Shown piece after piece: positions 15,464-46,307 of a stretch of 64,000 nt of DNA. Both the position numbers and the translations under genes were made by a program. A model generated the notes under the pieces. The model was not told the origin of the DNA, ran no database searches, and saw only the letters and a program-made list of their open reading frames with translations. Source of the DNA: Candidatus Ozemobacteraceae bacterium. GTDB lineage: Bacteria; Muiribacteriota; Ozemobacteria; Ozemobacterales; Ozemobacteraceae. The stretch lies in contig DAOSOK010000004.1 in assembly GCA_035373905.1 (NCBI GenBank), positions 33,271-97,270 on the forward strand, read 5' to 3'. How positions within the stretch are numbered: the stretch's first letter is position 1; every line of letters begins with the position of its first letter.

Positions 15464-16075
15464 ATGGGTATCGATGTCGCAACCTTCACCAAGCAGCTTC
15501 GCGAAGACGGAATCGAAGCCGCCCGCCGCGAGGCCGAAAAGATCCTGGCCGATGCGAGGGCGAAAGCCGACCACGAAAAAGAGCAGGCCAGGGCCGCGGC
15601 CCGTCGTATGGTCCAGAAAGGGGAGGCCGAGATCGCCCGGCACCGGCAGAAGGTCGAGGCCGAGCTCAGGCTTGCCGCCCGTGACCTGGTTCTCGACGTC
15701 AAAAAGCGCCTGGAAAACCTGACGCGTGGCCTTCTCCAGCCGGTCGTCGCCGAAAAACTGTCGGCGGCGGACGTCGTCGAGTCCTCCCTCCGGGAACTCC
15801 TGAAAACCCAGAAGACCGGCCGCGAATGGGAGGCGGCGCTCGGCCCCGTCGTCGGTGCGAAACTGACCCAAGCCGCGCTGAGCGACCTGTTCAAAACCGC
15901 GGACGGCCGAGTGAAACTTGGCGAGACGCTCAAGTCGGCCGGATTCACCCTGCGCGACACCGCTTCCGGCGAAGTCATCGAACTGACCGAAACTTCGGTC
16001 GCCGACGCCTTCGGCCGTCTGATCGCGCCCCAGCTCCGCGCTCTGCTGGACAAGTCCGAAAACGCCGGAGCCTGA
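15464..16075 (+). CDS. atpE: V/A-type ATP synthase subunit E
   Basis: About 200-aa Ala/Glu/Arg-rich coiled-coil protein typical of V-type subunit E; AAGGAG RBS; first gene of the operon. Confidence 0.7.
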   Translation: MGIDVATFTKQLREDGIEAARREAEKILADARAKADHEKEQARAAARRMVQKGEAEIARHRQKVEAELRLAARDLVLDVKKRLENLTRGLLQPVVAEKLSAADVVESSLRELLKTQKTGREWEAALGPVVGAKLTQAALSDLFKTADGRVKLGETLKSAGFTLRDTASGEVIELTETSVADAFGRLIAPQLRALLDKSENAGA

Positions 16076-16084
16076 GTCGCAACC

Positions 16085-16789: not shown

Positions 16790-18525
16790 GCGTATCCGGA
16801 CGCATCGTAACGATATTTGGAAATATGGTCACCGCCGAGTTCGACGGCGCTGTCCGGCAGAACGCCGTCGCTTACTGCCACCGCGCCGACGGGGTTCGGC
16901 TGATGGCCGAAATCATCCGCATCCGCGGGAACCGGGCCGACATGCAGGTCTTCGAGTTGACCCGCGGTCTCAAAGTCGGCGACACGGTCGATGTGACGGA
17001 CGAGCTGCTCTCTCTCGAACTCGGGCCCGGGCTGCTTGGCCAGATCTACGACGGACTGCAGAACCCCCTGCCGGTGTTTGCCGAAAAGGTCGGCAAGTTC
17101 CTCGAGCCCGGCAACTACTTCAAGCCGCTGAACCGCGAGACGAGATGGGAGTTCACCCCCCTCGCGCAGGCCGGTTCGACCGTTCGCGCCGCCGACGCGC
17201 TCGGCAAAGTGCAGGAAAGCATCTTCGACCATTACATCTTCGCCCCGTTCGATCTCGAAGGCGAGTGGAAGCTCAAAAGCCTCGTCGGAGCGGGGTCCTA
17301 CACGGTCGAACAGACGATCGCCGAACTCGAGGGCGCCGACGGGAAAACAATTTCGGTCAATATGATAAACCGCTGGCCCGTCCGCATCCCGCTGACGCAC
17401 TACGCCGAGCGGCTTCTGCCCGTGACCCCCCTGGTCACGAAACAGCGCATCATCGACACCTTCTTCCCGATCACGCGCGGCGGCACCTACTGCATTCCCG
17501 GCCCGTTCGGCGCCGGCAAGACGGTGCTGCAGCAGATCACCAGCCGCCATGCCGAGGTCGACGTCGTCATCTCCGCGGCCTGCGGCGAGCGCGCCGGCGA
17601 GGTCGTCGAGACGCTGCGCGAGTTCCCGCACCTGACCGATCCGCGCACCGGCAAGACGCTGATGGAGCGCACGATCATCATCTGCAACACGTCCAGCATG
17701 CCCGTCGCGGCCCGCGAGTCCTCCGTCTACACGGCCGTGACGCTCGGCGAATACTACCGTCTCCAGGGGCTCCACGTGCTCCTGCTGGCCGATTCGACCT
17801 CCCGCTGGGCCCAGGCTCTGCGCGAGATGAGCGGCCGTCTCGAGGAGATCCCCGGCGAGGAGGCCTTCCCGGCCTATCTCGAAAGCTCCATCGCCCGCTT
17901 CTATGAACGCGGCGGCTCGGTGAAGCTGCGCGATGGTCGCGAGGCCTCGCTCACGATCGGCGGCGCCGTCAGTCCCGCCGGCGGCAACTTCGAAGAGCCG
18001 GTCACGCAGGGCACGCTCAAGGTCGTCGGCTCGTTCCTCGGTCTGTCATACGCCCGCTCCTACGCGCGCCGTTTCCCCGCGATCGACCCGCTCGAGTCCT
18101 GGTCGAAATACCATGGCATCATCGACGAGAAGAAGGTCGCCTGGGCGCGCTCGTTCCTGCGGCGCGGCCGCTCCGTTTTCGAGATGATGCAGGTCGTCGG
18201 CGAGGAAGGCACCTCGATGGACGATTACGTCGTCTACCTGAAGGGCGAGTTCCTCGATTCGGTGTATCTGCAACAGAACTCGTTTGATGAGGTTGACGCC
18301 GCCTGCCCCCCCGAGCGCCAGCAGGACCTGTTCGGCCGCGTCTGCCGCGTCCTCGGGCACGAATTCTCCTTCGCCAACAAGGACGAGGCCCGCGACACGT
18401 TCTTCACGCTCACCGAGCAGTTCCGCAACTGGAACTACGCGAAGAGCGGCTCGGATGCCATGAAGGATGCCGAAGCGAAGATCGCATCCTGCCTGCAGAC
18501 CGACAAGGAGGCTGCCCATGCGTAA
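16786..18525 (+). CDS. atpA: V/A-type ATP synthase catalytic subunit A
   Basis: GTG start overlapping the upstream stop. P-loop GPFGAGKT; Walker B region [15 protein letters not shown]; about 580 aa, with the non-homologous insert typical of A subunits. Confidence 0.9.
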
Positions 18526-19852
18526 ATACTACACCCGCATCGACCGCATCGCCGGAAACGTCGCCATGCTCAAGGCGACCAACGTCGGTTTCGAGGAACT
18601 CGCCATCATCGAGGGCCGCGTCGGCCGCTCGCTCGCCCAGGTCATCAAGGTGTCCGGCGAGGACGTTTCGCTCCAGGTCTTCTCGGGAACCCGCGGCCTG
18701 TCCACCGGCGACCGCGTGAGTTTCCTCGGCTCGGCGATGCGTTTCAGCTTCTCCGAAGACCTGTTCGGCCGCATCTTCACGGGCGGCGGCGAGCCGCGCG
18801 ACGGCCGAAGCACGCTCACCGAGAACCTGATCGAGGTCGGCGGCCCGGCCGTCAACCCGGCCGTGCGCCTCATGCCCAGCCGCATGATCGCCACGAACAT
18901 TCCGATGATCGACGTGTTCAACACCCTCGTCGAGGGCCAGAAGCTGCCGATCTTCTCGATTCCCGGCGAGCCTTACAACGAACTGCTCGCGCGCATCGCC
19001 CTCCAGGCCGAAGCCGACGTCATCGTGCTCGGCGGGATGGGCCTCAAATACGACGAATACCTGTTCTTCAAGCAGCGGCTCGAGGAGGGCGGCGCCCTCT
19101 CGCGCACCATCATGTTCGTCCACACCGCGTCCGACCCGGTCGTCGAGTGTATGCTCACTCCCGACATTGCCCTGACCGTGGCCGAACGGTTCGCCGTGCA
19201 GGGAAAGCGCGTGCTGGTGCTGCTGACCGACATGACGAACTTCGCCAACTCGCTCAAGGAGATCGCGATCACGATGGAGCAGATCCCGTCGAACCGCGGC
19301 TACCCGGGCGACCTGTATTCCCAGCTCGCCTCGCGGTACGAGAAGGCCGTCGTGTTCGACAACGGCGGCTCGCTCACGACAATGGCTGTCACCACGATGC
19401 CGGGCGACGACGTCACGCACCCGGTTCCGGATAACACCGGCTATATTACCGAGGGCCAGTTCTACCTCAAGGGCGGCTGGATCGAACCCTTCGGCTCGCT
19501 CTCGCGGCTCAAACAGCTCGTCAACGGCCGCACCCGCGACGACCACCGCGCCATCATGGACGGCTGCATCCAACTCTACTCGAAATGCCGCGAAACGCGT
19601 GAAAAGCGCGCCATGGGCTTCGAGATGTCGCCGTGGGACCTGAAACTGCTCAGATACGGCGAGCAGTTCGAGCAGCGGATGATGGATCTGTCGGTCAACA
19701 ACACCCTCACCGTCGCCCTCGATCGGTGCTGGGAGCTTCTGGCCGAGGTGTTCGAACCGCGCGAGACCGGCATCCGGTCGGCGCTGTGCGAAAAATACTG
19801 GCCGAAGAAGACCGGCGCCGGTGTCGAGACCGCCGCCCCCGCCGCCCAGTAA
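18518..19852 (+). CDS. atpB: V/A-type ATP synthase subunit B
   Basis: The ATG at 18518 overlaps the atpA stop. Regulatory-subunit B fold (no canonical P-loop; [32 protein letters not shown]); about 445 aa. Confidence 0.9.
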
Positions 19853-24068: not shown

Positions 24069-26931
24069 TCAGGCGTGGTGCTTCCGGAAATGCCGGAGCC
24101 AGGCGAGGAACTTCTCGGTCTGGGAACCGATCAGTTCGGTCAGGAGGATCGCCTCGCGGTCCTGGTAGTTCTTGAGGGCGAACTCAGACAGCAGGTTGAG
24201 GCAGCCGGGGTCGCTGAACAGCTCGAGCAGACGGTCGAAATGATGCCTGAACTCCTCGGCCTTCTTCTGCCGCTCCTCTGACGAAAGACTTGGACGACGC
24301 AGTTTGAGCCGCTCGAGGAGAGACAACGGCTGGTTGAAGAGCTGGGCGAGACAGGTCGGACCCCGCGGCTGGCGTGCCCAGATATACAGGATGTCGAGCA
24401 TCGCGGTGAGCCGCACGTCGCGATCGTGCGAGCTCAGGCGCGGGAGCAGCTCGCTGAGGTCGCGCTTGCGGATGACGATGCGCTGGCTGTATTTCCCGAA
24501 GCCCTCGATGAAGCCGCCCACGACGTCGGACCAGAGTTTCGCCTGAACGATGCTCGGAATGCCGATCAGGTTGCCGATCGGCGCGAAGGTCGTCGCGAAC
24601 GGCCAGGCGAGCACCGTGCGGAAGAAGTTCGCCCGGATGACCCGGCGGTCGAAGTTGCGCAACCGGTTATGGGTGCTGATGTAGATTCCGTTCGCCATGC
24701 AGAGGAAGAAGAACTTGGCGCCCTCGAACAAGAAGCCCGACTTCTCGAGCGGCCAGTTTTCGTCGAACGCGATTTTCACGATGCCCAGGATCGGGACGCT
24801 GAAGCCGGTCCAGAATAAGGACTGAGATATATTATCGAAGTTGACGTTGCGGAGGCTCCAGTTCCGGATGAGGATCCCGGAGCTTGCGAGCAGGTCGACC
24901 AGCATGTTCCGGGTGCCGGTGATCAGGAACCAGATCGTCGCAAACATCACCCCGGCCAGCTGGCCGAACTGGTAATTCATGAACGAGAACGCCACGATGA
25001 ATCCGATGGTGATGCGCCAGAGGCTCTTGAGGCCGGGGTTCACATACGCCCAGAACTCTCCGGGCGGGACGAGGGCGAGCGCTTCCTCGTCTCCGACCAG
25101 ATTCCGGAAGGGCTTCCCGATCTTTCCCATGCAGACGACATCCGACGCGCTTCCAATCGGCGCATCGGGGCTGTCGTTCTTCTTTCCGCCGTGGATGACG
25201 AGGTCGGCGATCGGCCGGGGCACCTTATAATGCGATTCGAGGAATTCGGGGCGCACCGACTCGGGAATGTTGCCGACCTTGATGAAGCCCATGCCCGGGA
25301 TCGTCGGGTCGCGGCCGGTCGAATCGCTGCCGCAGACGGGAACCAGCGGCCGGCGTGCGATGAGTTCCCGGGCTTTTCTGACCTGCTCGCGGGTTCCGCC
25401 CGTGATGCCGTGCTGCTCGAGGAAGTTCACGATGTCGTCATCGGTGCCGTTGTTGAGCAGGTAGACGAACTTGTTGAAGATGATCAGGTCGTTCGGGTTG
25501 CGCGACGAACTGTCGCGCAGGTTCAGGGTCTCGATGTGCGAGATGCGGGCGATATGCTTGAGCAGGTGCTGCATCGAGTCCTTGAGGCCGATTTCGAGGG
25601 GGTGAATCATCACGATCCGGCCGCCTTGGCCGATCAGCGTGTCGAGAATCGGCTCTTCTTCGGCGAACTCGCTGTCGTAATCGACGACGTCCCGGCCCTC
25701 CATGTAAGCGGCGCGCAGGCTTTCGGGCGTCATCGTCTCATACTGCTCGCGGACGGCCTCGTATTGCGACGAGATGTTCTTGAACTCCCACTCACTGTAG
25801 ATGCCCCGCGCGAGCCGGTCTTCGGCGGCCAAGACCTGTGCCTTCAGCTGGAGGACGCGGCGCTGAAGGATGTCGCGAAACTTCTGGAACAGGAGTTCGC
25901 CGATATGAACCCGGGAAATCTGGCCGCAGGCGACGATACGGTCCAGTTCCTCGAGGGTGAGGGGGGGGAACCAGCAGGGGCTGTCGGGCTCCCAGCCGGA
26001 ATTGAGCCGGGGCCGCTGGAGCGTGTTGAATCGCTCGACGGCCGCGACCATCGTCTTGTGGCGGCTCGCCGCGTTCGTGCGGAGGCCGCTTAGAAACGGC
26101 GTGAAAATCATCCGACGTTCGTCGAAGAACGCGAAGAACTCCTTGCTGTCCGCGGTCTCGGGAGGCACATACATGTAGTGCCGACGTGCGCCGCTGTGTC
26201 CGACGCTGAACTCGATGCCGATGTTGACCTTGATGCCGAGCAGGTTCCCGGCGGTGATCGCCTCGTGGATCATGCGCCGCTCGTCGAGGTTCGAATACAC
26301 GATGGTGAGGCGTGAGATGCCCTTCACAAAAGCATCCAGCAGCACCTGCGTCGGAGTTTTGCGGCCTTCCGACAGGAAGTCGTGAACGTGGTCGTCCCAG
26401 CCCATGTCGAGCTCGCGGAGCGGTTTCTCCTCTTCGGGCACCTCGACCAGGTGGAGCTTGTTGAGGAACCGGCGGACGACCGCTTCCTGTCCGAACGAGA
26501 CCAGACCGAAGTCGGCCATGGCTTCCATCTGGCGTCGGCGGTTGCTGCGGGACTTGACGACCTCTTTCATCAGGTCGATCTGGATGCGCGCCGTGTTCAG
26601 CGGCATGTTGATCGTCTTCGCGTGCAGGGACTGGTCGACCAGCATTGAGAGGGCCGCAAGCCGCTCCTCGGCGGAGTTCGGGGAAAGGTCGCGCGCGATC
26701 TTGATATAGGCGCCCGCGATGCTGAGACGCCGTTTGCCGAAGTCGCGGACGAATCCGCCGGGGTGGGAGAGGTGCCGGACGTTCAGTCGGGTCGGAGGCT
26801 CGTCGAGCTTGTGGTTGACGGCATCGACCAGCGACTCGATCTCGTTGTTGAAGCTCAACCAGTCGATCAGGCGGGACAGCAGGCCGACGGCCGTGTCGTG
26901 GGAGGTTTGCAGCAGCCAGCGGAGCATGTTC
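24069..26931 (-). CDS. large conserved hypothetical protein (~954 aa): N-terminal soluble region plus C-terminal polytopic membrane domain
   Basis: Start chosen at the ATG at 26931 (MLRWLLQTSHD...). The track ORF continues upstream to 28508, but that part is antisense to glmM. The C-terminal 250 aa contain 5-6 hydrophobic helices (ITIGFIVAFSF..., FATIWFLITG..., FWTGFSVPILGIV...). No family recognised. Confidence 0.45.
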
Positions 26932-27167: not shown

Positions 27168-28517
27168 ATGGCACGACTGTTCGGTACCGATGGTGTTCGA
27201 GGTGTGGCCAACCAGTATCCCCTGACGGCCGACATGGCGTTCCGGATCGCCCAGGCCGGCACCCGCCACCTGCTCCTCAACCACAAGAAACACGATCGGC
27301 CGATCTTCGTCGGCAAGGACACCCGCCTGTCCGGCGACATGCTCGAGCACGCCGTGGCGGCCGGCATCGCCTCGATGGGCGCCGAAGCCCGACTGCTCGG
27401 CGTGGTTCCGACCCCCGCCGTCGCCTTCATCACGCGCGAAATGCAGGGCCTCGGAGGGATCGTCATCAGCGCTTCGCACAACCCCTTCCAGGACAACGGC
27501 ATCAAGATCTTCGCCGCCGACGGATATAAAATATCGGATGCTACAGAAGACGCCATCGAGAAGGACGTGACCGGCACCGCTTCGTTCATCCTTCCGACCG
27601 GGGAAAACCTTGGCCGCGTGACGGCTGATACGGCCTCGGTGCAGTTCTGGCTGGCCCATCTCGCGAAGATCCTCGGCGACTCTCACGGGGCGAAACGCCT
27701 CAAGGTCGGCCTGGACCTGGCGAACGGCGCCCTGGCCCCCTGGGCCGTGAAGTTCTTCACCGATCTCGGGTTCAGCGTCGACGCCATCGGCAACTCGCCC
27801 GACGGGCGCAACATCAACGCGAACTGCGGATCCACCCACGTTCAGCATCTCGTCGAGATGATGGGGCGCGAGCATTTCGACGTCGGCTTCGCGTTCGACG
27901 GCGACGCCGACCGGGTCATCGCCGTGACGAGCCAGGGCGACATCATTGACGGCGATTATATATTGGCCATTACAGCAAAATACCTCAAGCAGCAGGACAA
28001 GCTGCCGGGCAACTCGCTCGTCACGACCGTCATGAGCAATCTCGGCCTCGACCTCGCCATGAAGGGCCTCGACATCAAGGTGCTCAAGACGAAGGTCGGG
28101 GACAGGTTCGTTCTCGAGGAGATGAAGCGCACCCAGACGATCGTCGGCGGCGAACAGTCGGGTCACATCATCCTTTCCGACTACGCCACCACCGGAGACG
28201 GCCTGCTGACGGCCTGCTTCATTCTCAAGATCATCCGCGACACCGGCGCTTCGCTGAAGGAACTCAGCGAGGTGATGATGAAGCTGCCCCAGGTGCTCGT
28301 GAACATCCGGGTCAAGAACAAGAACTTCGATGCGGTCCCCCAGATCCAGGAGGAAATCCGCCTTTCCGAAAAGAAACTCGCCGGCCGTGGTCGCGTGCTG
28401 GTCCGCCCGTCCGGCACCGAGAACCTCGTGCGCGTGATGGCCGAGGGGCCTGACGAACGCGAGATTCGCCACCTCGTCGACGGGATCGCGAAGGCGATCT
28501 CGAATCATCTCTGCTGA
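27168..28517 (+). CDS. glmM: phosphoglucosamine mutase
   Basis: MARLFGTDGVRG N-terminus, active-site Ser in SASHNP, the four alpha-D-phosphohexomutase domains, and 449 aa. Confidence 0.9.
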   Translation: MARLFGTDGVRGVANQYPLTADMAFRIAQAGTRHLLLNHKKHDRPIFVGKDTRLSGDMLEHAVAAGIASMGAEARLLGVVPTPAVAFITREMQGLGGIVISASHNPFQDNGIKIFAADGYKISDATEDAIEKDVTGTASFILPTGENLGRVTADTASVQFWLAHLAKILGDSHGAKRLKVGLDLANGALAPWAVKFFTDLGFSVDAIGNSPDGRNINANCGSTHVQHLVEMMGREHFDVGFAFDGDADRVIAVTSQGDIIDGDYILAITAKYLKQQDKLPGNSLVTTVMSNLGLDLAMKGLDIKVLKTKVGDRFVLEEMKRTQTIVGGEQSGHIILSDYATTGDGLLTACFILKIIRDTGASLKELSEVMMKLPQVLVNIRVKNKNFDAVPQIQEEIRLSEKKLAGRGRVLVRPSGTENLVRVMAEGPDEREIRHLVDGIAKAISNHLC

Positions 28518-28526
28518 CGGGAAGCG

Positions 28527-29144
28527 GTGCGGGCGATGCGAGAAAACGGAACGATGAAGCCCCTTTCGAGGCGGTTCGCCGTTTTCTTTGCCGCCGCCCT
28601 GCTGCTTGCGCCCGGGTGCGGCCGCAAACCCCAGAACCCCGGCCAGAATGATCCCGGGAAGAAATCGCCGGATTCCGTCGCCGTCACCGGCCGGGCTTCC
28701 GATACGGTCTCGCCGGCAGGTGCCGGAAACGGCGCCATCTCATCGGGCGGCGCGCTCCTGCCGGGCCGCGGCGAGGCCCAGAAGGCGCCCATGACTCCCG
28801 CCGTCAGGCGCGAGTTCGAGCGCCGCTACGACAAAGGCATCGAACTCCTCGAAAAGCAGGAATACGGCGAAGCTTCCCGCATTTTCGAACAACTCCTCAC
28901 CGAAAGCTCCGATCCGCAGGATGCGAGCGTTGCCGCCTACTGTCTCGCCGAGATCTGCTTCCGGAACAAGTCGAATGCCCGGGCTCTCGAACTGTTCAAG
29001 GAAATCGTCGAGAAGTATCCCGGCACGCCGGCCGCCGACAATGCGAAGGCCGGCATCGAGTACCTCGAGAATTTCCACAAGCACGAGGCCGATTACGTTT
29101 CCCCGGACGTGGAGGATCGGAAGCGCCGGGGAGCGGGCCGATGA
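28527..29144 (+). CDS. TPR-like helical lipoprotein (YbgF/tol-pal-like fold)
   Basis: An N-terminal hydrophobic segment ends in LAPGC, then a G/S/P-rich linker, then TPR-like helices (YDKGIELLEKQEYGEASRIFEQLL ... AAYCLAEICF ... ALELFKEIVEKYPG). Start may be 28554. Confidence 0.5.
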   Translation: MRAMRENGTMKPLSRRFAVFFAAALLLAPGCGRKPQNPGQNDPGKKSPDSVAVTGRASDTVSPAGAGNGAISSGGALLPGRGEAQKAPMTPAVRREFERRYDKGIELLEKQEYGEASRIFEQLLTESSDPQDASVAAYCLAEICFRNKSNARALELFKEIVEKYPGTPAADNAKAGIEYLENFHKHEADYVSPDVEDRKRRGAGR

Positions 29145-29175: not shown

Positions 29176-29655
29176 ATGAAACAGGCGTTCGAACGGCGAC
29201 ACGGTTTCTCGATCATCGAAGTGCTCCTGGCGATGCTCATCATCGGTGCCGGCGTCGTGCCGGTGCTGTCGCTGTTTCTGACCGGTTCCCGCACCGTCGA
29301 GAAGGGCGGGTTGCTGCTGTCGGCCACCATCGCGGCCCAGAACGTTCTCGACCGCGCGAAGAGCGACGCGTTTCTCTGGGGCAACGTCCCGCTCACCCTG
29401 GATTTTCCCGATCCCGATCATCCGCAGTTCACGCTGCCCGCCTTCTTCGCGAAGAAATACAGCGCGTCCGGGACGCTGATCATCGAGGAGGCTCCCGGCC
29501 ACACCGTCATCGGCACCGGCGAGAAGGAGACGAACCTGGTCCAGGTCAGCGTCATCATTCGCTGGATCGAAAACAAGACCGCGCGGTCGACCAGGCTCGT
29601 GACGTACCGTGCGAACACGAACTGCTTCGACCTGAAGACGTCCGCGAAATTCTGA
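29176..29655 (+). CDS. prepilin-type N-terminal cleavage/methylation domain protein (pseudopilin/type IV pilin-like)
   Basis: Internal ATG at 29176. Class III signal ...RRHG|FSIIEVLLAMLIIGAG, with Glu at +5 after the Gly. Confidence 0.7.
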   Translation: MKQAFERRHGFSIIEVLLAMLIIGAGVVPVLSLFLTGSRTVEKGGLLLSATIAAQNVLDRAKSDAFLWGNVPLTLDFPDPDHPQFTLPAFFAKKYSASGTLIIEEAPGHTVIGTGEKETNLVQVSVIIRWIENKTARSTRLVTYRANTNCFDLKTSAKF

Positions 29656-30308
29656 TGAACCGCGAGGAACGAGTGAAACGCATCTCGGTGATGGCGCGCC
29701 CGGCAAGCGGTTTTACGCTCGTCGAACTTGCAATATCCGCCGTTATCGTATCGCTGATCGGTCTCGTGCTCGTGGCCGTCTTCCGAAGCAACCTCGCCAC
29801 CTGGAAATGGGGCCAGGAACGCATGGAGTTCAACCAGAAGATTCAGCTCGCCATGAAGCAGGTATTCACCGACATCAAGCGCATCAATCCCGTCGTCCTC
29901 ACCGACACCCAAGGGAATCTCTGGTTCAAGGGGGAGCGCATCGGCGACCTGTTTCCCAACGTCATCGAAGTCGTCGACACCGACAAACAGCCGGAAAACG
30001 GAGGCGAGGAGCTGATCTTCCAGCATACGACCTATCGCAAGCCCGGCGAGCGGACGCAGGTGCGGCTGTTCCTCGAGCAGGGGGCCCTCATGCGCGAGAC
30101 GACGGACCAGAACGGGACCCGCTCCCGCGTCGTGATCTCCGACAAGGTTTCGAACCTGCATTTCGTGCGCAACACGGCCGACATCAACGAGATTTCCGTT
30201 TCGATGACGATCGCGGATGACATGAACCCGAAGCTCACCGAGGACCTCGTCTTCGCCGTCCGCCTCGACACCGATCTCGTATGCGTGAAAGCGAGGGACG
30301 GCTCATGA
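29655..30308 (+). CDS. prepilin-type N-terminal cleavage/methylation domain protein (pseudopilin-like)
   Basis: ...ASG|FTLVELAISAVIVSLIGLVLVAV; the ATG overlaps the upstream stop (TGATG). Confidence 0.7.
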   Translation: MNREERVKRISVMARPASGFTLVELAISAVIVSLIGLVLVAVFRSNLATWKWGQERMEFNQKIQLAMKQVFTDIKRINPVVLTDTQGNLWFKGERIGDLFPNVIEVVDTDKQPENGGEELIFQHTTYRKPGERTQVRLFLEQGALMRETTDQNGTRSRVVISDKVSNLHFVRNTADINEISVSMTIADDMNPKLTEDLVFAVRLDTDLVCVKARDGS

Positions 30309-30799
30309 TCGCCAGACGCGTCTCGAAGCGAGGATTCATCGCGTTCTACTCGTTCATCCTGCTGCTCATCCTGGGCATTTTCGGCATTTCCTACTGGGCC
30401 GTCTCGCGACTCTCGACGAGCGGCATCGTCCAGGAGGCCGGCCGCATTCGCGCGAGATGCCTCGCCCAGGCGGGCGTCGAGAAGGTGATGATCAACATCG
30501 TCAACCAGTATCGCCTGGGCAACCGCAACCTCGCATACCCCGGCAAATTCAGCCGGGACCGCACCGACAAGGAATACAACGTCGAGTTCGGGGACGGTTC
30601 GTACCGGGTCGAATCGGTCCAGCCCTACACGGCGCCGGGAAGCAGCAAGGTCATGACGCAGGTGCCGTATTACCAGCGCCAGACGGCCATTGGGACCTAC
30701 GACATCTGGAAGATCGTCGTCGTCGGCGAAGTGCCGGAAGGCGCACAGGCGCGGGTCGAGACGCTCGTCAAGATCATCAGGCAGTATGCCCGATACTGA
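30305..30799 (+). CDS. small membrane-anchored pseudopilin-like protein (non-canonical prepilin signal)
   Basis: The ATG at 30305 overlaps the upstream stop. KRGFIAFYSFILLLILGIFGISYW hydrophobic N-terminus; gene order is that of minor pilin sets. Confidence 0.4.
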   Translation: MIARRVSKRGFIAFYSFILLLILGIFGISYWAVSRLSTSGIVQEAGRIRARCLAQAGVEKVMINIVNQYRLGNRNLAYPGKFSRDRTDKEYNVEFGDGSYRVESVQPYTAPGSSKVMTQVPYYQRQTAIGTYDIWKIVVVGEVPEGAQARVETLVKIIRQYARY

Positions 30800-30825
30800 C
30801 GGGCGAAGTCGCGGGAGGAAAATAT

Positions 30826-32139
30826 ATGGCTACATATAAAAATGCGTTTCGGGGCGCTGCCCGTGCCGCGTTTCTCGGAGGCTTCCTACTCGCTTCCGTC
30901 GCGGGAGCGGGGGCGGCGGACGACGGGCCCCGGTTCAGCGGGTTTTCCGCCAAGGTTTCCGGCGACATCTACGGCCAGCCGCGGGTCATCGAGGACATGG
31001 ACGGGGACGGAAAGCAGGACCTGATCTTCGGCGCCACGGACGGCAAGGTGCATATCTACTCGTCGAGCGGCAAGGAGATCATCAGGCCGCCGAACTGGCC
31101 GAAACAGACGGGAGCCCCGATCCTTTCCGATGTGTCGGTCGCCGACCTCGACAACGACGGGAGCTCCGAGATCATCGTCAGCTCGCTGAACGGAAAGGTC
31201 TACTGCATGGACCGCCGGGGCGTGCAGAAATGGGAAGTCAACACCCGCGGCACGATCCGCCTCTCGTCCCCCGAGGTCGCCGACGTCGACGGGACGGGGA
31301 ACATGTCCGTCTTTATCGGATCGAAAGCGGGCACCGTGAGCCGGATCGACAAGGACGGGCGGCTGATCTGGGAGGTCCCGATGTCGACCTCCGTCTCGTC
31401 GCGCGTCGTCGCCGCCGACATCAACGGCGACGGCACCAAGGAGCTGGTCGCGAAGGACGACAACGGGAAGGTCACGGTCCTGAACATGCGCGGTTCCGCG
31501 GAGAGCGGCTGGCCCCAGTCGACGGTCCCGAACCTGACCTGGCCCTTCGAGGTCGGTGCGGGCGACATCAACGGCGACGGCATCAAGGAGATCTTCACGA
31601 CGACTCCGGAAAAAAAGTTTCTGATATGGAACAGGGACGGCAGCCTCCGGACGCAGTTCGGCCTTTCCGACGCGTCCCACTCGGCTCCCCGCCTCGCGGA
31701 CCTGAACGGGGACGGCCGCGACGAGTTCGTCATCGGCCAGGCGGACGGGGTGGTGATGGTGTGTGATCGCGACGGCAAACCGCTTCCCGGGTGGCCATTC
31801 AAGACCAGACATTCGATCTATCACACGCCGCAGGTGATCGACGTCGACGGCGACGGCCGGCTCGACGTGGTGTTCACGGCCTGGAACCCCGAAGGCGTGG
31901 GCAAACAGGCGGGATACGTGATGGCGCTGGGTCGTGACGGGACCCCGCTCCGCGGGTATCCGAAATACATCGGGAAATCCATCGCCCCGCTGACCTTTGC
32001 CGATCTCGACGACGACGGGTATCTCGAGATGATCGCCGCGGGCGGCATCAACTACACCGACGATCAGCTTCACGTCTTCCCGACCGGCGCCCGCGTGCAG
32101 ATCCGGCTGGCGATTCTCGGCAGCGAGGTATCCTTCTGA
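30826..32139 (+). CDS. FG-GAP/VCBS-like beta-propeller repeat protein, secreted
   Basis: The ATG at 30826 follows GGGAGGAAAATAT. Signal peptide, then seven repeats of D-x-D/N-G-D-G-x-x-E (DMDGDGKQD, DLDNDGSSE, DVDGTGNMS, DINGDGTKE, DINGDGIKE, DLNGDGRDE, DVDGDGRLD). Confidence 0.65.
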   Translation: MATYKNAFRGAARAAFLGGFLLASVAGAGAADDGPRFSGFSAKVSGDIYGQPRVIEDMDGDGKQDLIFGATDGKVHIYSSSGKEIIRPPNWPKQTGAPILSDVSVADLDNDGSSEIIVSSLNGKVYCMDRRGVQKWEVNTRGTIRLSSPEVADVDGTGNMSVFIGSKAGTVSRIDKDGRLIWEVPMSTSVSSRVVAADINGDGTKELVAKDDNGKVTVLNMRGSAESGWPQSTVPNLTWPFEVGAGDINGDGIKEIFTTTPEKKFLIWNRDGSLRTQFGLSDASHSAPRLADLNGDGRDEFVIGQADGVVMVCDRDGKPLPGWPFKTRHSIYHTPQVIDVDGDGRLDVVFTAWNPEGVGKQAGYVMALGRDGTPLRGYPKYIGKSIAPLTFADLDDDGYLEMIAAGGINYTDDQLHVFPTGARVQIRLAILGSEVSF

Positions 32140-33497
32140 TGCGGTTCGTCCCCTTTCCCGCTTGGCGCAGGGCTTTCCTGGCGGCGCTCTGCGCGGCTTC
32201 GGTGTGCGCCGGGGGCGCATGCGCCCAGGAAGAGGATGACGTCCGCGAGTTCCTGACCAAGGGGCAGGTTTGCTACCAGAAACGCGACCTGGCGGGTGCC
32301 GCGCTCGAGTTCGAGAACGTGCTCCTCCTCGATCCGGCGAATTTCGAGGCGTCGATCTGGCTGGCCCAGATCTATGCCGACCAGAAGAACATGTTCAAGG
32401 CCCGGCAGATGCTCCAGCAGGCGAAACGGATCATGCCGACGCACGCCCGCGTGATCGCGCTCGAGAAACTGTTCGGTGCCGACAAGCCTCGGGTCTCGAA
32501 AAAGGAAACCGACCTGGTGATGCACGAGGCGCTGACCCTGCTCGGTTCGGGAACGAACCTGCGGCCATACGGCCTCGTCGTGCCCGAGCGGAAGGTCCGG
32601 GCCGCCGGCGTCCAGTCCTCGACGATGGCCGCGTTCGAGGACGTGGAAATTGCGATCGAACCCTCGCTCGGAACGGCCCCGGCGAACGCTCCTGCCGGTA
32701 TCGACGCGTTCGCGAAGGAGGAGGGACCGCTCGCCCCCGTGTTCGAGGCGCGGACGGTCGAGGGACTGGCGAAGGCGCTCGACGTCTATTTTGAGATCGT
32801 CGGGAAGGACAAAACCCTCGTCGAACAGGATGACAAGGGCTTGCTCACCGAGGGAATCGCGTTCTACGAGCCGAAACTCCGCGCGAATGCCAGCGACACC
32901 GAGGCCGTTTTCTATTACGGCATGATCCAGTTCTACAACGGGGCGGTCGAAGAAGCGTTCAAACTCCTCGAGCCCCTGCGTGACAACGAGACGCCCTACG
33001 GCGACCGGCTCCAGGTCGTCTGGAATGAGATCGACAAACGGAGACGCGAGGAGGAAGCCCGCCGCGAAGCCCTCAGGCGCGAGGAGGAGGCCCGCGAAGC
33101 CGCCCGCATCGCCGCCGCCGAACAGGCCGCCGCCGCGTCCGCCGCGATCGCCGCCGCCGCAGGAAGCGCTCCCGCCGGAACCGTCGCCTCCGCCTCGAAC
33201 CCTGCTGACGCCCTTCACGCCGAAGGCTACGAACTGTACAAGAAGGGCCAGGTCGATGCCGCGATCGAGAGGTTCAATACCGCCATCAGCCGCAACCCGA
33301 ACGAACCGAATTACCACTACCACCTCGGCCTCGCCCTCACGGACAAGGGACTCGGGGGGCAATACGACGCATTTGACCGGGCGATCGAGTCGTTCAACCG
33401 CGTTCTGCGCCTCGCCCCGCCCGGCGAAAAACTCGCGAAAGACGCCGAAGCCATGGTTCGCGACATCACCGCCGCCAAAAACACCCTCAAACGCTGA
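32139..33497 (+). CDS. secreted TPR-repeat protein with a central Glu/Arg/Ala-rich coiled-coil region
   Basis: Signal peptide; TPR-like motifs (GAALEFENVLLLDPANFEASIWLAQIY; ...LHAEGYELYKKGQVDAAIERFNTAISRNPNEPNYHYHLGLAL). Confidence 0.6.
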   Translation: MRFVPFPAWRRAFLAALCAASVCAGGACAQEEDDVREFLTKGQVCYQKRDLAGAALEFENVLLLDPANFEASIWLAQIYADQKNMFKARQMLQQAKRIMPTHARVIALEKLFGADKPRVSKKETDLVMHEALTLLGSGTNLRPYGLVVPERKVRAAGVQSSTMAAFEDVEIAIEPSLGTAPANAPAGIDAFAKEEGPLAPVFEARTVEGLAKALDVYFEIVGKDKTLVEQDDKGLLTEGIAFYEPKLRANASDTEAVFYYGMIQFYNGAVEEAFKLLEPLRDNETPYGDRLQVVWNEIDKRRREEEARREALRREEEAREAARIAAAEQAAAASAAIAAAAGSAPAGTVASASNPADALHAEGYELYKKGQVDAAIERFNTAISRNPNEPNYHYHLGLALTDKGLGGQYDAFDRAIESFNRVLRLAPPGEKLAKDAEAMVRDITAAKNTLKR

Positions 33498-33706: not shown

Positions 33707-34450
33707 ATGGGTGTGACAACGAAACACAATCGCGGCCAGGAAATTTCCCCTGACCTCGATGCCGGTGAAAACGGCGTCGCCGTCGAGGTGCCGGTGACCC
33801 GCCCCTTCGAAGGGTACACCTACATCCGCAAGGAATGGGTCGACCAGGAAGACGGGATCGAGAAGGTCACTTTCAACATGACGCTCGGGCCGGTCAATCT
33901 TCCCGCCGACTGGAGCCGCACCCAGACGTTCGTCATGATGCCGGAATGGGGCACGTCCCCCCTCCGCCGCACCTGGATCGTGAGACTGCCGACGCATCTC
34001 GAAGGGCACGAACAATATCTTTTCCACTATTTTTTTCAGACCTACTATGCGAACGGTGAGGAGCGCGTCAGCAGCATGTTCGCCCAGTTGATCCAGCCGC
34101 GCGAGATCGAGTATATCGATTACGGAGGCGAGCTCGTCAACGTTCGTCTCCACTGGAGCGTCGGCGACTGGGCATACGCGCAGGACACCGAACTCGAGGT
34201 AGACGGCATCGAGTGGGGAAGCGAATTTTCCGTCAGCAGCGCGCCCTATCGCGCCAAAGACCGTCTGTATCAGAATGGCCGCACCCTCGTGATGCGCCGT
34301 CTGCCCGTTCCGCGAAGGTTTCACGGCCTGATCTGGGCCCCGAAGGGCGCCGAGGTCCGCTTTTGCTTCCAGCTCGTGCGGCACCGCCCCGACGGCCAGG
34401 ACCTGCTGTGGGACAACAATTTCGGTAAAGATTACTCTCTGACCATCTAA
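33707..34450 (+). CDS. hypothetical protein (247 aa, Trp/Tyr-rich; no family recognised)
   Basis: Good RBS (AGGAGAGAG). The protein has no evident signal peptide. Confidence 0.45.
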   Translation: MGVTTKHNRGQEISPDLDAGENGVAVEVPVTRPFEGYTYIRKEWVDQEDGIEKVTFNMTLGPVNLPADWSRTQTFVMMPEWGTSPLRRTWIVRLPTHLEGHEQYLFHYFFQTYYANGEERVSSMFAQLIQPREIEYIDYGGELVNVRLHWSVGDWAYAQDTELEVDGIEWGSEFSVSSAPYRAKDRLYQNGRTLVMRRLPVPRRFHGLIWAPKGAEVRFCFQLVRHRPDGQDLLWDNNFGKDYSLTI

Positions 34451-34471: not shown

Positions 34472-35038
34472 ATGAGACACCCCGACATTCTTACCCGCGA
34501 AGGCGCCGTCCTTCTCATCACCGATGTACAGAAGAAGTGCATCAAGCCCATCTACCGCAAGGAACCGATGATCAACAATATCAAGACCCTCGTTTCCTAC
34601 GCCGGCATGATCGGCCTGCCCATCCTCCTCACCGAACTGGCTCCCCAGACGTTCGGCGGAACGATCGAAGAGATCAAGAAGCTGATTCCGCGTCTCGAGC
34701 CGATCAAACGCAGCCGCTACAGCGCCTTCGGCAGCGAAGATCTGACCCTGCGACTCGAGGCGATGAACACCAATACCCTCGTCGTGGTCGGCATGGAGAC
34801 CCACGTGTCGGTCTGCCAGACCGTGCTCGATGCGCTGACCCGCGGCTTCCGCGTTCACGTCGTGCTCGACGCGTCCAGCTCGCGCCGCAAGGTCGACTGG
34901 AAAGTGTCGCTCGAGAAGATGCGCCGCGCCGGCGCCATCGTGACGACGATGGAACTCGTGATGCACGAAATGATCGAGCGCGTCGACGTGCCGCAGTTCG
35001 ACAAGTTCCAGGAGCTGCTGAGCAACATCGGCCGCTGA
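34472..35038 (+). CDS. isochorismatase-family cysteine hydrolase
   Basis: GAVLLITDVQ (catalytic Asp), ..K.., and the Cys nucleophile context TLVVVGMETHVSVCQTVLDA; GAGGAG RBS. Confidence 0.75.
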   Translation: MRHPDILTREGAVLLITDVQKKCIKPIYRKEPMINNIKTLVSYAGMIGLPILLTELAPQTFGGTIEEIKKLIPRLEPIKRSRYSAFGSEDLTLRLEAMNTNTLVVVGMETHVSVCQTVLDALTRGFRVHVVLDASSSRRKVDWKVSLEKMRRAGAIVTTMELVMHEMIERVDVPQFDKFQELLSNIGR

Positions 35039-43993: not shown

Positions 43994-44218
43994 TCCGCAG
44001 ATGACGCAGATGGCGCGGATTGGCAGGGAAATCTATTGATTTCTGCAGAATGAAAGCCACCCGTTTGCCTTGAGTCTGTCGAAGGGCAAAATGAGGAATC
44101 ATCGGCAAGTGGCTGTCCGTGCTTCGGCAAGCTCAGCACGAACGGAGACACGAAGCTGGTTTTTGATATGCAGGACTCAATAACCAAAAAATCTGCGTCA
44201 TCTGCGAAATTTGCGGAT
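43994..44218. repeat. composite MITE-like element: outer inverted repeats (ATCCGCAGATGACGCAGAT) flanking an inner ~150-bp element homologous, in inverted orientation, to 15156-15304
   Basis: Outer arms at 43994-44012 and 44191-44218 (reverse complement, with a 9-nt insertion). The inner element at 44034-44183 has degenerate TIRs CTATTGATTTCTGCAG / GCAGGACTCAATAA and an internal copy of the palindromic repeat. Confidence 0.55.
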
Positions 44219-44267
44219 TGTTCTCCCTGTCCTGCGGTGTCGTTGTGGGCGGCAACATATCGCCCGC

Positions 44268-45773
44268 TTACTTCGTGGTGGCGAGGTTGGCTTTCGCTTC
44301 TTCGATGACGTTCAGGTTGTCGATCGCCATTTCCTTCGTGCGGAGGGTCTCGGCCTTGCTTTTCCCGAAATTGAAGACCTGCTTGTTTGCTTCGTAGGCC
44401 TTGACCTTCTTTTCGTTGGTGCCTTCGTTCATCCAGGCGAGGTTGCACTTCGCATATTCGGACTTCACCTTCTCCATCTCGGCGCACTTCTTCTCGATCA
44501 TCGCCTCGATGGCGGCCTTGTCGGTGCCGGTTTTCTCGCTCAGGCGAAGTTCCTTCGCCATGTTGGTCCGAAGCTCGTCGGTCGTCGCCGGATACTGATC
44601 GATGAGCCGGGTGAACTGCTTCATTTTTTCGGGGTTTTTCTTGTCTTCCTCGCTCAGTTTCTCTATCGCCTTCTCGATCTGCCGGTCGGCCAGCTTCATC
44701 TCGTAGGCTTTCTTCTGGGCATCGGCCATCTCTTTCTGGGACGCGTCTTTCTCATTGTATATCGATGCGAATGATTTCCTGAAAAACTCCTTCTCGTCCT
44801 CCTGGATTTTTGCATCTACCTGCTTCAGAATCTTGTCCGCCTTGTCGGAGGGGCGCTCGCCTTTTTCGGGAAGATTGCCGTCGGGACATTTGATGTCCGC
44901 AAGCTTGTTTCTCATGTCGGTGGCGAACGCGACGTCCGGGTCGGTGCCGACGATCCAGTCATACCACTTCTTGCCCGTATCGATGTCCTCGATCTGCTTG
45001 TTGAGCTCCTTCAGATCGTCTTTTGCCTGGGTGATCGTGTCTTCCTGGACCTTGCTCATGTCGTCGAGCTGCTCTTTCGTCAGGTTCTTGAGAGAGTCGG
45101 CGGACAGCTCCTTGTCGAACCAGGTGCTCTTGTCTGCTTCGTCGATCTTCTCCTTGATCGCCGATGCCGTCTGGAGATTGCTCGCATAGCTTTTGTTCGC
45201 CAGCTGGTAATAATCGTCGCGCATGATCACTGACGTGCGCTCGGTATGCCGGATTTCCTTCTTCGAGCCGGGAACCCGCATCTTGAGGGTGACGGCGACG
45301 TCCACCCGCGCCGACTGCTGGGGATTGGCTTCGGCCTCTTCGGGGGAAAGAGTTTTCTTCGCGACGGTCACGACGTCGACGTGACCCGAGAGCGTGCGCG
45401 GCCCCTTCCCGCTCAACTCGCGCCTCAGAAGCGGCTTGAGGAATGTGTATTTCACGGCGAGGGTTTTGTCCGTCGAAAGCTTTTCCTCACCCTTCGATTT
45501 CTCGTCGACGGCGAACCGTTCAAACTCCATCGAGAGGGGATCGGCCGTCGTTTTGAAGGTGTTCGCCTTGACGGCCTTCAAGTCGGCCGTCAGCATCTGG
45601 ACGATCAGGCGGCTGTCGTGCTGGAGGATCTGACGCGTGCTCGTGATGGCCATGCTTCGCTGCGCCTGGCTCCAGAGATTCATCGTGACGCCGAGGACGA
45701 GCGCGAAGAGGGCGATGCTCACCATGACTTCCGTCATGGTGAATCCCCGTCTGCGTCCAGTTTTCATCGCCAT
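44268..45773 (-). CDS. prepilin-type N-terminal domain protein with an about-400-aa Lys/Glu-rich coiled-coil C-terminal region
   Basis: Start chosen at the ATG at 45773 (MAMKTGRRRG|FTMTEVMVSIALFALVLGV). The C-terminal two thirds are highly charged heptad-like sequence (KEKIDEADKSTWFDKELSADSLKNLTKEQLDDMSKVQED...). The track ORF extends 105 codons further upstream. Confidence 0.6.
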   Translation of the reverse strand: MAMKTGRRRGFTMTEVMVSIALFALVLGVTMNLWSQAQRSMAITSTRQILQHDSRLIVQMLTADLKAVKANTFKTTADPLSMEFERFAVDEKSKGEEKLSTDKTLAVKYTFLKPLLRRELSGKGPRTLSGHVDVVTVAKKTLSPEEAEANPQQSARVDVAVTLKMRVPGSKKEIRHTERTSVIMRDDYYQLANKSYASNLQTASAIKEKIDEADKSTWFDKELSADSLKNLTKEQLDDMSKVQEDTITQAKDDLKELNKQIEDIDTGKKWYDWIVGTDPDVAFATDMRNKLADIKCPDGNLPEKGERPSDKADKILKQVDAKIQEDEKEFFRKSFASIYNEKDASQKEMADAQKKAYEMKLADRQIEKAIEKLSEEDKKNPEKMKQFTRLIDQYPATTDELRTNMAKELRLSEKTGTDKAAIEAMIEKKCAEMEKVKSEYAKCNLAWMNEGTNEKKVKAYEANKQVFNFGKSKAETLRTKEMAIDNLNVIEEAKANLATTK

Positions 45774-45808
45774 ACCTCGATTCTTCGGCCGGAACGGTCG
45801 ATCCGGTT

Positions 45809-46306
45809 TCACAGGAACTTCGTTTCGGGATTGAACACCAGGGCCGTGGCTCTGAGTCTGCGTTCGGGCTGATTGACGGCGGTCTTTCCGCCCTTGTCGC
45901 GCCATCGGATCTCGGCCTCGAAGTAAATCTCGACGAGCTGGTTCGACTCGTTTTTCGTGCCCGTCATCGAGGTCTCCACCCAGAACTCCCGGTCGCCCGT
46001 CTTCTTCTGTTCGTCGAGCGCGGCGACCGTCTCGGGATAATACTTTTCGGGAATCGCGAACTTCTTTTCCTGCAGTACGTCGGGACATTCCTTCACATAC
46101 GTCGCAAAGGGAACGTGCTTGACCTCTTCGATCAGCCGATTGAGGATGGCGGCAGCCTGCGACTGATTGCTGGTTCGCGCCGTGGCGGTGTAGTTGCCGG
46201 TTATCAAACGCAGGAGCGGCAGGAGCGCGAGGGCGATGATGGCGACCGCGACCATGATCTCGATCATGGTGATGCCGCTCCGGCGCCGGTCACGACAAGC
46301 CGTCAT
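45809..46306 (-). CDS. prepilin-type N-terminal cleavage/methylation domain protein (pseudopilin-like)
   Basis: Start at the ATG at 46306: MTACRDRRRSG|ITMIEIMVAVAIIALALLPLL, with Glu at +5. Confidence 0.65.
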   Translation of the reverse strand: MTACRDRRRSGITMIEIMVAVAIIALALLPLLRLITGNYTATARTSNQSQAAAILNRLIEEVKHVPFATYVKECPDVLQEKKFAIPEKYYPETVAALDEQKKTGDREFWVETSMTGTKNESNQLVEIYFEAEIRWRDKGGKTAVNQPERRLRATALVFNPETKFL

Positions 46307-46307
46307 G

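Follow-up and report, generated by a model that had tools for sequence, protein, structure and literature searches.

A conserved six-gene operon of Riflebacteria encodes a predicted GspI/J/K-type minor-pilin set together with a propeller protein and two TPR proteins

The window analysed here is a 64 kb stretch of a Candidatus Ozemobacteraceae (Riflebacteria) genome. It contains an operon of six genes, all intact and all on the + strand, which is kept across the candidate phylum Riflebacteria. The first gene, P0 (28527..29144; likely start ATG 28554, MKPLS...), encodes a small TPR lipoprotein, and is followed by three (pseudo)pilin genes: the GspI/PilV-like minor (pseudo)pilin P1 (29176..29655; 159 aa; class III signal peptide RRHG↓FSIIEV), P2, of the GspJ/PilW class (29655..30308; likely start 29691; PASG↓FTLVEL), and P3, a minimal GspK/PilX-like pseudopilin (30281..30799; likely start 30305; SKRG↓FIAFYSF, without Glu5). 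P4 (30826..32139) encodes a propeller protein of 437 residues with calcium-type loops and matches to FG-GAP_3 and PQQ_2, and P5 (32139..33497) a secreted TPR protein of 452 aa with TPR matches at both ends. A preliminary description of this DNA had taken P1-P5 as one co-directional unit with short or overlapping junctions, and this was borne out: neighbouring genes among these five overlap or are separated by 0-27 nt, P4 starting 27 nt past the P3 stop codon and the P5 start overlapping the P4 stop. The limits proposed there (29176-33497) hold for the P1-P5 content, but the unit starts one gene earlier, with P0.

Comparison with related genomes revealed full-length orthologues in 20 distinct loci, with identities down to 27-40%, and the pseudogene check was negative, each gene having full-length collinear orthologues. 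Each of the 17 distinct orthologous loci that are complete has the order P0-P1-P2-P3-P4, with P4 identity going down to 40%; the five-gene core P0-P4 is passed on as a unit across Riflebacteria. The GC content of the module is typical of the host. The module lies directly 3' of glmM in most lineages, a linkage that is gone in the most divergent ones, while the upstream glmM and the downstream P5 are retained in closer relatives. The flanks of the orthologous loci (at most 10 kb) carry V-ATPase, glmM, POR, ribosomal or CRISPR genes.

A six-frame regular-expression scan of the whole 64 kb returned seven canonical class III motifs, two in this operon, two in 44268-46408 and three in 59702-62743. 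Each of the seven lies at the N-terminus of a gene belonging to one of the three clusters, with none elsewhere in the window, and the same scan on 646 kb of unrelated loci returned no canonical class III motif. The prepilin signals and the presence of three such clusters, both noted before, are thereby confirmed, and the unusual lineage that their density had suggested is indeed Riflebacteria. Each of the three clusters also encodes one protein with a K/X-like N-terminus that lacks Glu5. P1 to P3 had been regarded as generic, orphan prepilin-like genes of largely unknown function, but they make up a minor-pilin set of predicted GspI/J/K (PilV/W/X) type, arranged in canonical order.

P1 shows in full the features by which type IV pilin-like proteins were defined, namely a short basic leader, Gly(-1), Phe(+1), Glu(+5), about 20 hydrophobic residues and a score above curated HMM cut-offs (23.2 bits against PF07963, cut-off 21.2; 20.6 bits against TIGR02532, cut-off 16.3). 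Its residues 9-63 matched PilV (TIGR02523; 1.9e-7, 31.6 bits) and XpsI/GspI (1.9e-4, 21.4 bits), both below the family cut-offs of 52.2 and 150, respectively. A profile search of the PDB also matched the N-terminal helix only, and P1, whose orthologues share 35-86% identity, thus appears to resemble GspI/PilV in that helix only. P2 carries the full motif G↓FTLVEL and scored 19.9 bits against PF07963, narrowly below the cut-off of 21.2; many of its orthologues have a precomputed PF07963 match. No curated GspJ/PilW model (TIGR01711 gspJ, Pfam T2SSJ/PilW) matched P2 at E≤0.01 in NCBIfam or E≤10 in Pfam. Its AlphaFold model, however, is a confident pilin fold of the GspJ type, with the pilin N-terminal helix followed by the two-sheet globular fold that defines the GspJ/PilW class, and the likeness of P2 to this class, as predicted, is structural only.

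The N-terminus of P3, after which comes the motif RIxARxxAQAGxEK, is non-canonical (R-G↓FIAFY...): it has Gly(-1) and Phe(+1) but lacks Glu5. A pilin-like N-terminus without Glu5 and then a conserved helix motif is the pattern that was sought for GspK/PilX, and P3 has both; absence of Glu5 is a hallmark common to GspK and PilX (PMC7541494). The P3 profile connects to a T2SSK-domain protein, with which it shares the N-terminal helix motif. The AlphaFold model (164 aa) is a confident pilin fold consisting of the helix and one sheet only, and the large alpha-helical/HhH insertion of GspK is absent from it. Its best structural match was GspK, with no significant match when the model was compared with the PDB by Foldseek. 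P3 belongs to no Pfam family, and T2SSK (PF03934), T2SSK_1st (PF21687) and PilX_N (PF14341) gave no match even at E≤10. P3 is therefore described as a putative K/X-like cap in role, outside the GspK/PilX families.

P4 matched FG-GAP_3 in seven stretches (4.8e-40) and PQQ_2 with 31.1 bits, above the domain cut-off of 27.6. It had been called a seven-blade propeller, which is probably wrong: eight repeats of about 47 residues each span residues 45-425, and the solved structures nearest to it in sequence are eight-bladed PQQ-type propellers (3hxj, 5.5e-26, and the designed Cake8-10). Seven of the loops are perfect DxDxDG. The remaining one, at residue 153, has the degenerate sequence DVDGTG, where divergent orthologues carry the canonical form. 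The protein has a Sec-type signal peptide (...AGAGA↓ADD); neither a conserved Cys nor a lipobox was found in it. About 90 full-length orthologues share 39-95% identity, and all source-given names among them are Riflebacteria/Ozemobacteraceae. P4 shares with PilY1 the functional hallmarks of a signal peptide, a propeller with a putative calcium site and the place of its gene. P4 matched 14 Pfam families at E≤0.01 but not the PilY1 family PF05567, none of its 48 PDB sequence matches is a PilY1 chain, and there is no variable N-terminal adhesin region (e.g. vWA), for which the repeats leave no room. No other protein of the module is as well conserved as P4, which in family-level relatives has 63-68% identity, compared to 70-76% for GlmM. 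A role in adhesion rather than secretion, as proposed earlier, is possible, but the high conservation of P4 and its lack of a variable adhesin domain would fit a structural or priming partner at least equally well.

The two TPR proteins differ in architecture and distribution. In P0, a lipobox and a linker rich in Gly, Pro and Ser are combined with a TPR domain at the C-terminus; the lipobox (..GC, mostly ..GCC) is present in 16 of the 17 orthologues. Its gene lies directly upstream of P1 in 17/17 distinct loci that include the region, and the stop and start codons often overlap. P0 matched TPR_16, TPR_19 and YfiO as well as YbgF/BamD-like models, every one under the family cut-off (BamD, 32.5 bits, cut-off 81.4; YbgF, 34.6 bits, cut-off 90.1). 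An accessory lipoprotein of the BAM or Tol-Pal systems (BamD/BamB, YbgF/TolB) was thus not recovered, P0 being below these cut-offs and P4 being without a lipobox. In P5, TPR matches cover residues 30-108 and 351-431, the centre is a Glu/Arg/Ala-rich helical segment, and the signal peptide is conserved. P5 follows P4 in 18 distinct loci and closes the operon in the Ozemobacteraceae and their near relatives; L004 and L023, the most divergent lineages, do not have it.

The earlier observation that no pilus ATPase, platform or secretin gene lies within the 64 kb held. The T2SSE, T2SSF and secretin families were not detected in the window ORFs scanned, the remaining ORFs being orthologues of annotated loci, and T2SSE Walker/His-box motifs were absent from the window and from 25 orthologous loci (20 distinct). 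Neither the window nor the 20 distinct loci encode an ATPase, a platform protein, a secretin, a prepilin peptidase or a clear major pilin, and hence no complete T2SS or T4aP set (GspE/PilB, GspF/PilC, GspD/PilQ, prepilin peptidase) occurs in the same locus. Myxococcus xanthus has three minor-pilin/PilY1 clusters and one machine (PMC7541494). Minor-pilin sets that lie apart from the core machine genes, several per genome, are normal, so that the lack of core genes nearby is in itself nothing remarkable.

On balance, and with modest confidence, we favour the explanation that the operon encodes a complex that primes and tips a type IV filament, either a type IVa pilus or a T2SS-like pseudopilus, along with accessory proteins, the machine being encoded elsewhere. 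This reading is based on the class III motifs of P1 and P2, the absence of Glu5 from P3 as in GspK and PilX, and the similarity of the N-terminal 55 residues of P1 to PilV and XpsI. It is further based on the I-J-K-then-propeller order, which mirrors gspIJK and pilV-pilW-pilX-pilY1, on the tight or overlapping junctions and strict P0-P4 synteny (17/17 loci), and on the M. xanthus precedent for three sets per genome (PMC7541494). P1, P2 and P3 would be inserted in the inner membrane, where P1 and P2, and probably P3, would be cleaved after Gly/Ala(-1) by a prepilin peptidase from elsewhere in the genome. They would then form a staggered I-J-K-type trimer, with P3 as the terminal cap, which would nucleate polymerisation of the major subunit on an ATPase/platform/secretin machine encoded elsewhere and end at the filament tip. 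In the periplasm, P4 may bind the cap in the way that PilY1 docks on PilX/PilW, and would then serve, in a calcium-dependent manner, as a module for priming, as a cork or for contact; P0 and P5 could help in docking or as chaperones. As is known from organisms with more than one set of minor pilins, the two other clusters might provide alternative tip sets with giant K-like proteins. Against this reading count the absence of core machine genes from the window and the 20 distinct orthologous loci and the lack of a GspH/FimU-type fourth minor pilin in the cluster. As judged from its sequence, P4 also lacks a PilY1-family match and a variable N-terminal adhesin region, and its top conservation in the module would be unusual for an exposed adhesin.

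The same genes might instead form the tip of a T2SS-type pseudopilus, with P4 and perhaps P5 as exoprotein cargo that a GspK-like cap pushes through a secretin, and no displayed pilus. We consider this unlikely, even though P2 and P3 are closest in structure to T2SS proteins (XcpW, EpsJ, GspJ, GspK) and not to T4aP minor pilins, the P3 profile leads to a T2SSK-domain protein, and P4 and P5 bear Sec-type signal peptides. In addition, GspK is believed to touch substrates, and PilY1 has been likened to a T2SS substrate (PMC7541494). Three distinct tip sets on one secretion piston would, however, be unusual. T2SS pseudopilin genes usually sit inside a gsp operon, and none of gspC-H or gspL-O was found nearby.

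An envelope complex that is independent of any filament is improbable in our estimate; here P1-P3 would be inner-membrane stalks holding P4 and the TPR proteins as a periplasmic, lineage-specific scaffold, for example in outer-membrane or peptidoglycan biogenesis. The module does behave like core genome, with its host-typical GC content, its vertical conservation throughout the phylum, its place mostly directly downstream of glmM and a P4 conservation close to that of GlmM, and machine genes are lacking nearby. However, the glmM linkage is lost in the most divergent lineages, and the resemblance of P0 to the TPR parts of BamD and YbgF/CpoB stays far under the cut-offs. P4 recalls PQQ_2/BamB-type eight-bladed propellers but, unlike BamB, has no lipobox. 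The class III cleavage motif is conserved and therefore implies processing by a prepilin peptidase, and we know of no precedent for I/J/K-type pseudopilins working without a type IV filament machine. That P0-P5 are a static, Riflebacteria-specific envelope complex, inherited with the core genome beside glmM as a new periplasmic-scaffold use of the tip module, we regard as quite improbable. Decaying remnants or chance pilin-like motifs without function, for which the sub-threshold Pfam N_methyl score of P2 and the familyless P3 could be cited, are effectively refuted by the conservation of intact, full-length ORFs across the 20 loci and by the confident pilin-fold models of P2 and P3, and the motif scan was free of false positives over the 64 kb and the further 646 kb.

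Minor-pilin tip complexes govern the onset of type IV filament formation and the contacts that the filament makes, and knowledge of them comes nearly all from Proteobacteria, Myxococcus, Thermus and Firmicutes. The Riflebacteria operon is no new kind of system; as a tip complex, it would be a phylum-wide conserved version of the tip set in an uncultured lineage. Its distinct points would be a K/X cap cut down to a minimal pilin fold, a non-homologous FG-GAP/PQQ-type propeller with calcium-type loops in the place of PilY1, and two TPR proteins built into the operon. If the tip-complex reading is true, "cap plus propeller" would be a convergent design of filament tips, and several Riflebacteria genes now annotated as "hypothetical" or generically would receive names.

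Compared with the T2SS GspI-GspJ-GspK tip (E. coli 3CI0; Vibrio EpsI-EpsJ 2RET; Pseudomonas XcpV/W/X), the operon has the same I-J-K order in three consecutive genes, a P1 N-terminus similar to XpsI, and a P3 that is nearest to GspK in structure, lacks Glu5 and has the helix motif of a T2SSK protein. It differs in lying outside any gsp operon with no GspG or GspH adjoining, in P1-P3 all being below the curated GspI/GspJ/GspK cut-offs, in the lack from P3 of the helical/HhH insertion defining Pfam T2SSK, and in the propeller gene and two TPR genes joined to it. The T4aP fimU-pilV-pilW-pilX-pilY1 cluster of P. aeruginosa shows the same V-W-X-like order, with an X-like member without Glu5, followed by a Sec-exported beta-propeller with calcium-type sites, and such sets, as in P. 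aeruginosa and the three clusters of M. xanthus, likewise lie apart from core genes, several per genome (PMC7541494, PMC11525922). P4, in contrast, occupies the gene position of PilY1 outside its family (no PF05567), with eight FG-GAP/PQQ-like repeats compared to the modified seven-bladed PilY1 domain and without the N-terminal vWA/variable region; the Riflebacteria set also lacks a FimU-like fourth minor pilin and has TPR genes on both sides. A further comparison is offered by the minor pilins of the Thermus thermophilus competence pilus (PilA1-3/ComZ; TTHA1219, TT_C0855). There the non-pilin ComZ, which is encoded among the minor pilin genes and is not known to be a propeller, has been proposed to be at the tip; the Riflebacteria operon has no sequence similarity to ComZ. 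The N-terminal helix of P2 matched Verru_Chthon protein C (TIGR02599; 19.4 bits, cut-off 256.5) and HpsC (18 bits, cut-off 200), and membership in these groups was rejected because the scores are far below the cut-offs and involve that helix only. The Verru_Chthon cassette (TIGR02596-02600) and the cyanobacterial Hps pseudopilins are nevertheless comparable, being likewise lineage-specific cassettes of prepilin-like genes that lie away from the core machinery.

Cluster 1 lies on the plus strand, where glmM (27168-28517) is followed by the TPR lipoprotein P0 (205 amino acids, 28527-29144), the pilin-like proteins P1 (159 amino acids, 29176-29655), P2 (29655-30308, likely start 29691) and P3 (30281-30799, likely start 30305), the FG-GAP propeller P4 (437 amino acids, 30826-32139) and the secreted TPR protein P5 (452 amino acids, 32139-33497). 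Junctions within the glmM-P0-P5 run measure 0-32 nt or overlap, and 210 nt separate P5 from the next gene. The preliminary description had placed the start of the cluster at P1; the conserved unit begins one gene earlier, at P0. GC content of the cluster is host-typical, an Rfam scan of the window returned no RNA family, and promoter and terminator scans gave uninformative counts, at or below shuffle expectation. Divergent from glmM lies a gene for a 952-amino acid protein (24069-26927, minus strand) that Pfam did not match and whose C-terminal region, read by eye, looks hydrophobic and multi-pass. On the other side, a conserved 247-amino acid protein without family (33707-34450, plus strand) travels with an isochorismatase-like gene (34472-35038); the pair follows P5 in most orthologous loci and lies beyond glmM on the opposite strand in one of them (L002), which places it outside the module.

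Analysis of the pilin-like proteins revealed that P1 (...RRHG/FSIIEV, the slash marking the cleavage site) scores above the curated thresholds for both PF07963 and TIGR02532, and that P2 (...PASG/FTLVEL) falls just under that of PF07963 (19.9 vs 21.2 bits). Residues 9-63 of P1 resemble PilV (1.9e-7) and XpsI/GspI (1.9e-4), and the protein is putatively I/V-like by these N-terminal 55 residues only. P3 (...SKRG/FIAFYSF) had no match in family scans. Searches of PDB sequences with the family profiles of all three proteins matched the generic N-terminal pilin helix alone, and structure prediction was therefore needed for fold assignment. The predicted structure of P3 (21-sequence alignment, pLDDT 84.4) consists of a 63-residue helix and, after it, one sheet; as Foldseek comparison of this model with the PDB gave no significant match, we regard the structural evidence as moderate. 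The best hit, LptE (E 0.035, TM about 0.25), was treated as noise.

The P3 family is very narrow, since its profile matched only 28 clusters among 1.84 billion representative proteins. One of the matches (P0269; E 8e-5, residues 11-76) carries T2SSK_1st, T2SSK and PilX_N domains and shares with P3 a hydrophobic N-terminus lacking the glutamate at position 5 (Glu5-less) and the motif K/RxKARxxAxAxxE, which reads RIRARCLAQAGVEK in P3 and is kept in all orthologues. Missing Glu5 is a known hallmark of GspK and PilX (PMC7541494). At E<=10, Pfam detected no PilX_N or T2SSK domain in P3, nor in either of the giant K-like proteins encoded by the other two clusters, and the large alpha/HhH insertion seen in GspK is missing from P3. 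With its Glu5-less N-terminus and shared motif, and without the insertion or a direct Pfam match, P3 thus qualifies as a minimal K/X-like cap, outside the Pfam T2SSK and PilX_N families. Membership in Verru_Chthon or Hps cassettes was rejected on family-model scans.

When all six frames of the window were scanned for the class III prepilin motif followed by a hydrophobic stretch, seven matches appeared, all at gene N-termini in the three clusters and none elsewhere. The same scan found zero motifs in 646 kb of sequence, made up of 60 loci surrounding distant homologues of the propeller in many phyla, and, as a positive control, recovered the P1 and P2 motifs in every orthologous locus holding both genes. 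The prepilin motifs reported in the preliminary description are thus genuine. Given the 60 loci free of the motif, the linkage of an FG-GAP propeller with pilin genes is a feature specific to this module and not a general one. Among the orthologues, six of 17 P1 proteins and three P2 proteins have Ala in place of Gly just before the cleavage site (-1), and the two most divergent P1 proteins have Gln for Glu at +5 (GFSFIQI, GFTLIQI); examples of both variants are L011 4333, L012 2601, L016 4300 and 4796, L004 8456 and L023 3480. These variants raise the question of whether and how such orthologues are processed.

No T2SSE, T2SSF or secretin family was detected in any window ORF scanned, as had been noted from the first reading, and orthology to annotated loci identifies the others as V-ATPase, POR, RsfS, RsmE and radical-SAM genes. 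The earlier designation of the prepilin genes as orphans holds within these 64 kb; such separation is ordinary for minor-pilin operons, and orphan status genome-wide is unproven. Literature searches on Riflebacteria or Ozemobacter and pili turned up nothing on the cluster 1 locus or the pilus machinery of the phylum.

The match to FG-GAP_3 (4.8e-40) identifies P4 as a propeller. Its repeats, each about 47 residues long, number eight, and not seven as first described, with seven perfect DxDxDG loops and a degenerate one at residue 153 (DVDGTG) that is canonical in divergent orthologues (DIDGDG, DLNGDG). The nearest solved sequence relatives are eight-bladed PQQ-type propellers, namely 3hxj (5.5e-26) and the Cake and Scone designs. 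P5 carries TPR repeats at both ends and a type I signal peptide conserved among orthologues, and the lipobox of P0 is likewise conserved (..GC, mostly ..GCC).

About 90 full-length orthologues of P4 were found (39-95% identity), and wherever a source gives a name, it is Candidatus Riflebacteria, Rifleibacteriota or Ozemobacteraceae. A Ca. Ozemobacteraceae MAG encodes, on contigs of 190 kb and 217 kb, proteins 100% identical to P2. Chromosome OZ223236.1 and Ca. Ozemobacter sibiricus BY5 are further Riflebacteria genomes with the operon. Synteny was compared across 20 distinct orthologous loci from species-representative genomes and assemblies: the order P0-P1-P2-P3-P4 is present in 17 of the 17 loci holding the whole region, P5 follows P4 except in the most divergent lineages (L004, L023), glmM lies upstream of P0 in most loci, and overlap of the P0 stop with the P1 start is common. 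Identity to the window among family-level relatives is 70-76% for GlmM, 63-68% for P4, 57-74% for P1, 49-66% for P2, 45-67% for P3, 41-54% for P5 and 33-55% for P0. Cluster 1 belongs to the core genome of the phylum as a vertically inherited module, and is neither an island nor a pseudogene set. One locus (L020, JAZRWI010000060.1) holding the whole glmM-P0-P5 module, with a GlmM 68% identical to that of the window, is labelled Candidatus Avigastranaerophilus, a Melainabacteria genus; the contig probably comes from Riflebacteria and was mislabelled or mis-binned. Two assemblies (L002 and L003) with identical P4 and matching upstream flank differ in the CRISPR-Cas system directly downstream of P5 (12793-21317 vs 12961-18871), which is type I-F (Cas1, Cas2-3, Csy1-4) in one and type II (Cas9, Cas1, Csn2) in the other, and the site downstream of the module has the appearance of a hot spot for defence islands.

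Starting from the observed folds and motifs, gene order, operon structure and conservation, we propose, with slightly better than even confidence, that P1-P3, once processed, would assemble into the priming and tip complex of a type IV filament; genes elsewhere would encode the ATPase, platform, secretin, peptidase and major subunit of that filament. P3 would cap this complex; P4 would dock there, perhaps through its conserved C-terminal strand (...RxxIKxAxLGxExxF), and act like PilY1 in priming, as a cork or in contact; P0 and P5 would assist. That the proteins form instead a T2SS-type tip, with P4 as its cargo, seems unlikely. An envelope scaffold independent of any filament would agree with the core-genome behaviour, the glmM linkage, the high conservation of P4 and the BamD/YbgF-like and BamB-like resemblances; however, those matches are all far below family cut-offs and P4 has no lipobox, grounds on which BamB/BamD and Tol-Pal memberships were also rejected. 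We consider this scaffold improbable. Remnant genes or chance are effectively excluded.

The other two pseudopilin sets of the window, clusters 2 (44268-50044) and 3 (57616-62743), also contain canonical prepilins, and each of the three has one Glu5-less, K/X-like N-terminus: P3 in cluster 1, a 973-amino acid protein in cluster 2 (46308-49229, minus strand; ...RQGNILSVVIV...AACLAEAGL) and a 747-amino acid protein in cluster 3 (57481-59724, plus strand; ...RRGFLLPAIVL...ALGLAEAG). Both giant proteins have a GspK/PilX-like N-terminus, stayed without a Pfam or NCBIfam match at a threshold as loose as E<=10, and may serve their clusters as modular tip proteins. Compared by BLASTP across the three clusters, the pilin-like proteins show similarity that is only weak and mostly N-terminal; they are therefore not recent duplicates, and the three sets are only distantly related. 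The cluster 2 region (44001-50000) is lower in GC content (0.56-0.60) than most of the remaining 2-kb bins (0.62-0.66), and its AT skew is strongly negative, reaching -0.30; this cluster may have been acquired more recently or be a more variable acquisition. In cluster 3, a 145-amino acid pilin (59702-60139) is a candidate major subunit, and two OmpA-family peptidoglycan-binding genes (60146-60952 and 60987-61721, plus strand) lie among the prepilin genes, an unusual insertion in a pilin cluster. Between these clusters, a single 1004-amino acid ORF of unusual architecture (51636-54650, plus strand) fuses AMP-binding adenylation, phosphopantetheine carrier and complete HMG-CoA reductase (2.6e-111) domains, and is followed by a formyltransferase-like gene (54616-55413, plus strand).

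The products of gspI-gspJ-gspK form the pseudopilus tip (crystal structure 3CI0). Both this gene order and that of pilV-pilW-pilX are matched by P1 (I-like), P2 (J-like) and P3 (K-like). In Pseudomonas aeruginosa and Myxococcus xanthus, pilX is followed by pilY1, whose Sec-exported product has a beta-propeller as its conserved C-terminal domain, is located at the tip and, with the minor pilins, primes pilus extension (PMC7541494, PMC11525922). In contrast to PilY1, P4 has no PF05567 match and no variable N-terminal adhesin region, and falls outside the PilY1 family. The three minor-pilin/PilY1 clusters of M. xanthus are distant from the core genes and serve one machine (PMC7541494), and the three clusters of the window look analogous to these sets. 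The cluster first recognized in the preliminary description is real, its genes can be named far more precisely than from that reading, and it would represent an I/J/K (V/W/X) tip set whose cap is minimal and whose propeller partner is not PilY1, kept across a candidate phylum.
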